Shown one piece after another: positions 1,118 to 1,380 of a DNA stretch of 20,000 nucleotides. Made by a program: the position numbers and the translations under genes. The notes beneath the pieces were generated by a model. That model was given only the letters and a program-made list of their open reading frames with translations, was not told the DNA's origin and did not search any database. The number at the start of each line of letters is the position of its first letter. Within the stretch, counting starts at the first letter, position 1. Source of the stretch: an uncultured virus (IMG/VR IMGVR_UViG_2713896813_000005) (lineage: Duplodnaviria; Heunggongvirae; Uroviricota; Caudoviricetes); the IMG/VR virus record IMGVR_UViG_2713896813_000005; one strand, 5' to 3'.

Positions 1118-1140
1118 AAAAGGCTACCGAAGTAGCCTTT
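1118..1140 (-). terminator. Intrinsic terminator with cUUCGg tetraloop
   Basis: Minus strand aaaggctac-ttcg-gtagcctttt, a perfect 9-bp stem. Confidence 0.65.
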
Positions 1141-1166
1141 GATTATTTATCTGCTTTCGTTGGGAT

Positions 1167-1301
1167 GCCGCGGTGCCGGGTGCCTCCCGGTGCGTCTTTG
1201 GCTGGTCAGACCGTGACACGCGGACATTTACATTGATAAGGACTGGATTGTTCATATCCGTAACCACTTCCGCCCATCCGCTCAGGTGGATTCACCGCGA
1301 C
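1167..1301 (-). ncRNA. Putative structured tRNA-like ncRNA, copy 1
   Basis: Closing stem gtcgcggtg/caccgcggc, 5' hairpin CCA-CC-TGAGC-GG-A-TGG, stem TGGTTA/TGACCA, 3' hairpin CCGGG-AGGCA-CCCGG. It covaries with the copy at 9211-9346. Candidate -10 TAGAGT at 1313-1308. Confidence 0.6.
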
Positions 1302-1380
1302 CAGACCACTCTATAGTCAGCAGCAAAAACCCGTAAACACCCGACTGGTTACATGATATGTACCCTGAAATATTTTTCTG

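Follow-up and report, generated by a model that had tools for sequence, protein, structure and literature searches.

A 20,000-nucleotide (nt) stretch of DNA from an uncultured Caudoviricetes virus (IMG/VR record IMGVR_UViG_2713896813_000005; "the window" hereafter means this whole stretch) was found to carry two copies of a structured RNA gene. Copy 1 lies on the minus strand, between the genes for a Q-like antiterminator (1504-2040) and a holin (683-991), and copy 2 lies 8 kb away on the opposite strand, in the early-left operon. Both are members of one phage RNA family, variously called STnc100 (Rfam RF02076), EcOnc27, sRNA103 and PasD. We consider it likely that copy 1 is an autonomous small RNA (sRNA) of the Hfq type with its own terminator, and that copy 2 is an embedded module of the same STnc100/PasD family, released via a stalk of the kind cut by RNase III. 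An earlier sequence-only reading had described copy 1 as an unnamed, tRNA-like RNA, and had held that a match to a characterised Rfam family would remove its novelty. Because copy 1 passes the STnc100 cut-off, that novelty is gone, and the main result for the finding as first described is negative, the RNA being already catalogued. The window contributes one new late-type member of the family and one member of a little-recognised early-left subgroup.

Assignment of both copies to the STnc100 family

The minus-strand segment 1328-1110, which contains copy 1, matched the Rfam STnc100 model over all 206 positions with a score of 74.1 bits (E 1.9e-14), well above the gathering cut-off of 47, so the statement that the RNA could not be assigned to a named family no longer holds. 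Copy 2 scored 31.9 bits against the same model (E 4.8e-5), under the cut-off. A loose motif scan of IMG/VR returned at least 124 stretches, from which chance matches and near-duplicates were then removed. We aligned 43 of these stretches with the two window copies (alignment A1, 45 homologues) and built from A1 a covariance model, R1, that contains the helices P1 and P2, an inner hairpin b, and P4. R1 recognised copy 1 with 79.5 bits (E 7.5e-19) and copy 2 with 73.4 bits (E 3.2e-17), and both copies aligned across all 126 model positions. A further model, R2, gave scores of 73.1 bits for copy 1 and 78.6 bits for copy 2. Together with the covariation seen over 84 distinct aligned rows, described below, these matches bear out two of the original proposals, namely that a genuine structured non-coding RNA gene lies between Q and holin, and that a covarying second copy is present in the same prophage.

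Other Rfam families scored far under their cut-offs around copy 1, among them Leu_leader (26.5 bits; cut-off 50) and, on the opposite strand, isrK (23.7 bits; cut-off 50). The P1 C4 family gave no match in the window at the gathering threshold, nor around either copy at E values of up to 10 and up to 5. Membership among the P1 C4/P4 CI antisense RNAs was rejected, with no Rfam C4 match anywhere tested.

A search with R1 returned 112 matches in 100 sources and 34 matches in 34 further sources, and none of the pattern matches that had been judged beforehand to be due to chance scored with this model. R1 matched a single genome among 151 sampled across the class and three among 151 sampled across the order. 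The matching genomes all belonged to one family, 3 of whose 8 genomes were positive, and no match was seen in the other genomes searched. By blastn, single Klebsiella, Citrobacter and Actinobacillus phage records carry similar DNA.

Several members of the family have been described in papers and preprints. STnc100 has 11 annotated copies in strain EDL933, one of them confirmed by Northern analysis (PMC5331693). EcOnc27/sRNA103 of enterohaemorrhagic Escherichia coli (EHEC) is a Northern-confirmed, Hfq-bound sRNA (PMC7873438) that sits downstream of stx2B and partly overlaps a predicted STnc100 (PMC7873438, PMC12711010), and the interval that separates the late promoter from the lysis genes is reported to hold such sRNA "dyads" in at least eight Sakai prophages (PMC7873438, PMC12711010). 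PasD1 and PasD2 of enteropathogenic E. coli (EPEC) are Northern-confirmed sRNAs with Hfq-dependent stability, for which targets and partners have been listed by RIL-seq (a method that ligates and sequences interacting RNAs; PMC8550237). PasD and STnc100 have been reported as structural homologues (bioRxiv 10.64898/2026.05.13.724894), and the most abundant CsrA-bound chimera in another preprint is a PasD2-containing pair (bioRxiv 10.64898/2026.08.12.744399).

Copy 1 resembles STnc100/EcOnc27/sRNA103 of the EHEC Shiga toxin (Stx) phages in P1, P2, b, P4 and its candidate 3' terminator. It is also placed as these RNAs are, between Q with the late promoter and the lysis genes, whereas copy 2 is placed otherwise. 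Unlike the catalogued STnc100, copy 2 and all other copies of the early-left or P7 type have no terminator of their own, and they score 31.9-43.8 bits, under the cut-off. The likeness to PasD1 and PasD2 of EPEC E2348/69 is one of description: they are Hfq-dependent structural homologues of STnc100 located near Q and the holin and lysozyme genes. Their reported targets and seed, however, are not transferable to the window.

A covarying core with a predicted pseudoknot

The family is defined by a core of about 100-135 nt that consists of a closing stem P1, a hairpin P2, a hairpin b, and a near-invariant hairpin P4 abutting P1. The core of copy 1 spans 1162-1306 on the minus strand, with P1 at 1299-1293/1175-1169, P2 at 1289-1274, a segment a at 1266-1261 that can pair with a' at 1208-1203, b at 1219-1215 with 1196-1192, and P4 at 1190-1176, directly abutting the 3' strand of P1. 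Copy 2 spans 9199-9359 on the plus strand, with P1 at 9199-9220/9337-9359, P2 at 9224-9239, a at 9244-9250 with a' at 9305-9311, b at 9294-9301 with 9313-9320, and P4 at 9322-9336. The helices listed in the sequence-only reading could all be found where it had placed them in both copies, although the P1 of copy 2, which it had given as 4 base pairs (bp), is in fact a stem of about 22 bp with one bulge. Minimum free energy (MFE) folds of the single sequences recovered P1, P2 and P4 in both copies. The fold of copy 1 with its terminator had an energy of -67.9 kcal/mol (z -2.23), with P1 lengthened from 7 to 9 bp, and that of copy 2 with its flanks had an energy of -91.0 kcal/mol (z -4.22), with the long P1, P2, b and P4 all recovered.

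The larger alignment, built from the homologues found with the covariance model, showed more covariation than expected by chance. Over 84 distinct aligned rows, 93.5% of the cells in modelled pairs could pair, compared with 78.5% in shuffled alignments and 42-46% when partners were slid. Double-sided changes were present in 20 of the 26 modelled pairs, with 345 such cells against 98.8 in the shuffles, and on none of five covariation measures did any of 500 shuffles reach the observed value. Pairs with double changes were distributed over P1 (7 of 9), P2 (5 of 5), b (7 of 7) and P4 (1 of 5), the last helix being nearly invariant across the family. The compensatory swap that had been noted in P4 is present as a CCGGG/CCUGG difference between the two copies, but it is among the few variants of this hairpin. 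Several unpaired positions are also conserved: the AAU junction 3' of P1 in 73 of 81 rows, the single A preceding P4 in 80 of 81, and the 5-nt P4 loop AGGCA in 76 of 81, while the P2 loop takes the form UNNGC across the family. The bulged base in P2, which had been thought to be kept as A, is A in only 49 of 81 rows (U in 19, C in 9, absent in 4).

The stem first described as P3, here a/a', is real, but the interior that it encloses had been taken to be unrelated between the copies, and in both of them it holds hairpin b, a second conserved and covarying hairpin that the sequence-only reading had missed. Since hairpin b has the 3' arm of P3 as its loop, the two helices would form a pseudoknot, in which the segment just 3' of P2 is predicted to pair with the b loop. 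We assessed this pairing in an alignment-free test over 59 distinct arm and loop combinations. The helix formed with the loop of the same element had a mean length of 7.2 bp, as against 5.0 bp with foreign loops, and the corresponding energies were -10.3 and -6.0 kcal/mol; a median of 7% of foreign loops equalled the own loop. On an alignment not fitted to the helix, 59.3% of the cells were paired and all seven pairs of a/a' were double-changed. On the R2/A3 alignment, whose 113 distinct rows were fitted to a/a' so that its figures lean towards the structure, 80.4% of the cells were paired and again all seven pairs were double-changed. The linkers flanking a' are short, mostly 1-2 nt and 2 nt, as in a hairpin loop that is fully paired. 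The Rfam consensus for STnc100 draws hairpin b but no a/a' pseudoknot, and no description of a pseudoknot for the STnc100/PasD family was found in the literature searched. The preprint on the Pas RNAs (bioRxiv 10.64898/2026.05.13.724894) mentions neither a pseudoknot nor dicF, dicB or kilR. STnc100 and the word pseudoknot were found together only in a study of outer-membrane vesicles, whose RNA list includes PK-repZ.

The insert between the pseudoknot-forming segments is hypervariable, and the homologue alignments support the original idea of a family of phage RNAs in which the scaffold is constant and the insert swappable. The 10-nt string CCUUAUCAAU is common to the insert of copy 1 (1232-1241, minus strand) and that of an early-left-type copy in a related genome (G001, contig C35); the two inserts are otherwise unalignable, and the match may be due to chance.

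The stacking of P4 on P1 had suggested a tRNA mimic, in which the P1/P4 stack would imitate the acceptor/T-arm helix, either for maturation by RNase P and other tRNA enzymes or as a decoy for anticodon nucleases. P4 has 5 bp and does abut the 3' strand of P1, which has 7 bp in copy 1, and some homologues lie about 10 nt from tRNA genes or within phage tRNA operons, as in phage P7 (between tRNA-Thr and terB) and on contig C21 of G001. Each tested feature of such a mimic failed, however. ARAGORN detected no tRNA or transfer-messenger RNA (tmRNA) in the window, the Rfam tRNA-clan models matched neither copy, and a tRNA, tmRNA or YrlA-type identity was rejected. The geometry of a 7-bp stem, a 5-bp stem and a 7-nt loop is not that of the family: P1 ranges from 4 to 28 bp over 104 distinct copies instead of being fixed at 7, and the P4 loop has 5 nt, not 7. 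An anticodon-like loop is lacking, as is any conserved CCA or discriminator after P1. Among 131 elements whose contexts were counted without de-replication, a tRNA gene lies within 300 nt on the 3' side in only 2. We regard tRNA mimicry as very improbable. A same-strand tRNA gene lies within 300 nt on the 5' side of 18 of the 131 elements, mostly a tRNA-Arg gene about 108 nt away, and the association with tRNA genes is real but confined to a minority of copies.

Late-type and early-left forms of the element

Copy 1 appears to be the autonomous form of the element, with a promoter of its own about 5-10 nt 5' of P1, a linker of about 30 nt after the core, and an intrinsic terminator, and its product would be an sRNA of about 190 nt encoded between Q and the lysis genes. 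The candidate sigma-70 promoter, read from the sequence, occupies 1308-1337 on the minus strand (-35 at 1337-1332, spacer of 18 nt, -10 at 1313-1308) and matches 8 of 12 consensus positions as counted by eye. This is the promoter that had been proposed earlier (TTTACG-18-TAGAGT), and its position agrees with many homologues, in which clear -35 and -10 hexamers end some 8-11 nt ahead of the conserved GGUG; the -10 hexamer of copy 1 recurs in several of them. The UUCG-loop terminator with its U-run (1114-1137, minus strand; by eye, stem 1137-1132/1127-1122 and U-run 1121-1114) lies within the STnc100 model match. As had been claimed, it is present in the sequence, and it forms in the MFE fold, but the terminator scan listed this hairpin on the plus strand only.

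The flanks of copy 1 hold further terminator-like hairpins. One (1390-1409, minus strand) precedes the promoter on the side of the Q gene and is followed by a U-run on the minus strand, the scan listing the hairpin on the plus strand; another (1047-1070, minus strand; 10 pairs, 7 of them G-C, then a U-rich tail) was found by the scan 3' of the UUCG terminator and before the holin gene. Across the family, a terminator-like hairpin lies within 110 nt 3' of 52 of the 131 elements. Tandem arrays also occur. In Fels-1, three copies on one strand lie between Q and holin (L002, 1383-3061), and contig C21 of G001 holds four copies in 1.8 kb interleaved with tRNA genes (L013, 3737-5466), two of these genes beginning some 10 nt past an element. 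In these arrays, which run on one strand between Q and the lysis genes, only the last element has a UUCG-type terminator.

With this arrangement, and by homology, copy 1 would give an Hfq-associated, trans-acting sRNA that the prophage can make. Among the functions that had been suggested for it, that of a guide or antisense RNA fits best, because its homologues are described as Hfq-bound sRNAs (PMC8550237, PMC7873438). StxS and the 6S RNA of phage lambda, which runs from pR' to tR', are likewise short terminated transcripts made 3' of Q in the lysogen, and copy 1 has the same position and a similar length (about 190 nt). The lambda late leader, however, is not a member of the family. Identity with the lambda late leader or 6S RNA was rejected, the best match (13.2 bits, E 0.012 with filters off) not being at the 6S position. 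This match, at lambda 44852-44946 (L141, 1353-1447), lies between orf-64 and S and is a faint resemblance that includes a hairpin abutting a CACC sequence; lacking significance, it may represent a remnant or a chance match.

The position of the elements also recalls the put RNAs of phage HK022, which bind RNA polymerase as antiterminators and would cause read-through of downstream terminators. HK022, with putL and putR, likewise carries two covarying structured RNA copies in one lambdoid phage, and the window copies are placed as such an RNA might be, one having a promoter just before it and terminators after it in the late leader, the other being part of a lengthy early operon. Yet the architecture and size differ, put RNA being described as about 70 nt with two stem-loops (PMC9378689), and R1 had no match in the whole HK022 genome at E values of up to 0.01, so that identity with put RNA was rejected. 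Efficient read-through is further argued against because late-type homologues accumulate as terminated sRNAs, as far as their published descriptions go. A put-like function is, in our view, extremely unlikely.

Copy 2 appears to be an embedded form, transcribed within the early-left operon straight after a DicF/KilS-like sRNA. It has no promoter of its own and no terminator within 110 nt on its 3' side. A terminator module of the DicF/KilS type lies directly 5' of it (9144-9192, plus strand; Rfam DicF 38.1 bits, E 1.3e-6, below the cut-off of 48), and an open reading frame (ORF) for 94 amino acids (9385-9669, plus strand; phrog_6751) begins 26 nt after P1, its Shine-Dalgarno sequence lying outside the stalk formed by P1. 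The order of DicF/KilS-like sRNA, element and early gene is that of kilS-element-kilR and dicF-element-dicB in E. coli K-12. Members of the family are present there without annotation: one in the dicF-dicB spacer of Qin (a full member, 73.3 bits with R1), one between the annotated sRNA kilS and kilR of Rac (67.0 bits), and one in e14 (63.1 bits; NC_000913, 1201256-1201388, minus strand) inside the annotated coding sequence ymfH. Because a full member of the family lies inside this coding sequence, "ymfH" is suggested to be at least partly a structured RNA and not a protein gene. The Qin and Rac spacers resemble copy 2 in gene order and in the long closing stalk, and differ from it in the downstream gene, which is dicB or kilR in K-12 and in the window the 94-residue ORF with a YdaE-like C-terminus. 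Phage Rac-SA53 has an element before kilR (83.8 bits), and the P1-like phage P7 has one in its C1-controlled tRNA/ban operon; D6 was also matched by blastn. Against the Rfam STnc100 model, the K-12 Qin, Rac-SA53 and P7 copies scored 34.4-43.8 bits, all under the cut-off.

The length of P1 separates the subgroups. The stalk measured 16-28 bp in 7 of 7 copies that follow a DicF/KilS-type terminator, compared with 7-10 bp in seven other copies with the same type of P2, and in 90 late-type copies P1 had 4-16 bp, most commonly 8. The long stalk thus marks only those copies that have a DicF/KilS-like sRNA before them. RNase III is reported to process the full dicBF mRNA to a 72-nt DicF (PMC5069750), and by coordinate mapping the position 19 nt past the end of the 53-nt DicF lies halfway along the 5' strand of the stalk in K-12. 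By analogy with this K-12 homologue, the stalk of about 22 bp that closes copy 2 is most likely cut by RNase III, a cut that would shorten the upstream sRNA, set the core free in its folded form, and create a fresh 5' end on the mRNA downstream. A subsequent preprint about the processing of dicBF mentions neither a stem nor secondary structure at this site, and in two global RNase III papers dicF appears only in citations of work from 1990.

A purely cis-acting role would explain several of these arrangements. The folded core would then be a cassette for processing and stability, placed after a promoter or a cleavage site so that a structured 5' end shields or adjusts the mRNA that follows, which carries the lysis genes for copy 1 and the early-left genes for copy 2, and any activity as a trans-acting sRNA would be incidental. 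The elements directly follow a promoter, a DicF/KilS terminator or, at about 108 nt, a tRNA gene; copy 2 is without a terminator and its ORF begins shortly after P1; and tandem arrays exist, in G001 interleaved with tRNA genes and also in Fels-1. On the other hand, a simple hairpin would suffice for 5' protection, and the Shine-Dalgarno sequence after copy 2 is not within the stalk. Late-type copies, moreover, have their own terminators, and homologues are reported to accumulate as discrete Hfq-bound sRNAs with RNA partners. We hold the cis-acting cassette to be a serious alternative, above all for copy 2, though on balance an unlikely one.

Two features beside copy 2 may be recorded here. Around the upstream DicF-like sRNA (9085-9201, plus strand), about 20 nt 5' of the terminator are identical to the conserved single-stranded part of the RprA consensus (Rfam RprA 27.9 bits, E 0.6, cut-off 70), so that this sRNA resembles a scaffold of the DicF/KilS type that carries an RprA-like seed; comparable 5' parts occur upstream of several early-left homologues. 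The product of the ORF at 9385-9669 has a C-terminal half that resembles YdaE of K-12 (52% identity over 52 aligned positions, E 8e-16), joined to an N-terminal stretch of 44 residues without a detectable relative. It showed no similarity to KilR and none of significance to DicB (E 2.4). In Rac, ydaE is a separate gene after kilR.

By gene content and PHROG profile matches, the window represents one lambdoid, Rac-like prophage. The minus strand encodes, in order, cro-like and cII-like genes, replication genes, NinB, an HNH gene, the Q-like antiterminator (phrog_753, E 7.4e-74; Pfam DUF1133 327.8 bits and Phage_antitermQ 28.1 bits), the holin (phrog_1350, E 3.2e-27) and an endolysin, and the plus strand a cI-like repressor, a DUF1391 gene, RecE/RecT, methyltransferases, an excisionase and a shortened integrase. 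Within 18367-19544, the integrase ORF is short (242 amino acids), the PHROG profile being matched only from position 62. Because this ORF stops roughly 300 nt short of the host sRNA pair SraC/RyeA-SdsR/RyeB, detected by the Rfam scan at 19400-19544, the prophage abuts that locus. The RecE-like exonuclease (10220-12909, plus strand) is present as two overlapping ORFs, 10220-12061 and 11947-12909, and in three of four runs the RNA-library contigs of a related strain differ by an additional base near 11814.

Possible functions of the two copies and of the core

We favour, as stated, an autonomous Hfq-type sRNA for copy 1 and an embedded module released at its stalk for copy 2. Several points weigh against this reading. 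A consensus promoter scan of 950-1550 returned no sites and so did not call the candidate promoter of copy 1, and since no other promoter-like site was found between Q and holin, the sRNA promoter of copy 1 may be the Q-dependent late promoter itself. Contigs from RNA libraries (four runs, X1-X4, of one study) covered copy 2 in every run and copy 1 in two, one X1 contig skipping 1122-1385, but they come from a related strain with several similar prophages and cannot show transcription, ends or strand. Cleavage of the copy 2 stalk by RNase III is argued from the K-12 coordinates, and copy 2 could act solely in cis. Finally, because an ordinary Hfq sRNA needs no conserved, multi-helix, pseudoknotted core with invariant loops, the base-pairing sRNA model leaves the most conserved part of the RNA unexplained.

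The last point raises another, tentative possibility, that the core, a pseudoknotted structure of about 115 nt, forms an autonomous functional RNA domain, which would bind a conserved host factor such as CsrA, Hfq or an RNase, or would be a self-contained processing cassette. Temperate phages would have placed this domain at two points of control, the early kil-type leader and the late leader, and the hypervariable loop would lend it an exchangeable element of specificity. We think this improbable at present. If it were true, the family would represent a modular phage system of scaffold plus guide RNAs, one that has gone unrecognised also in three cryptic prophages of K-12.

Taken together, the analysis goes beyond the databases and literature searched in three respects. 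There is a sister subgroup of the family under the Rfam cut-off, located in early-left operons directly before small early genes (dicB, kilR), which includes three unannotated K-12 copies, one of them inside the annotated coding sequence "ymfH". The family core contains a predicted, covarying pseudoknot that is missing from the Rfam consensus. The long stalk of the early-left copies coincides with the 3' end of DicF that RNase III is reported to make. Should the core prove to be functional in itself, the K-12 copies would be a safe, tractable model for RNAs that are present in many copies in EHEC and EPEC prophages.

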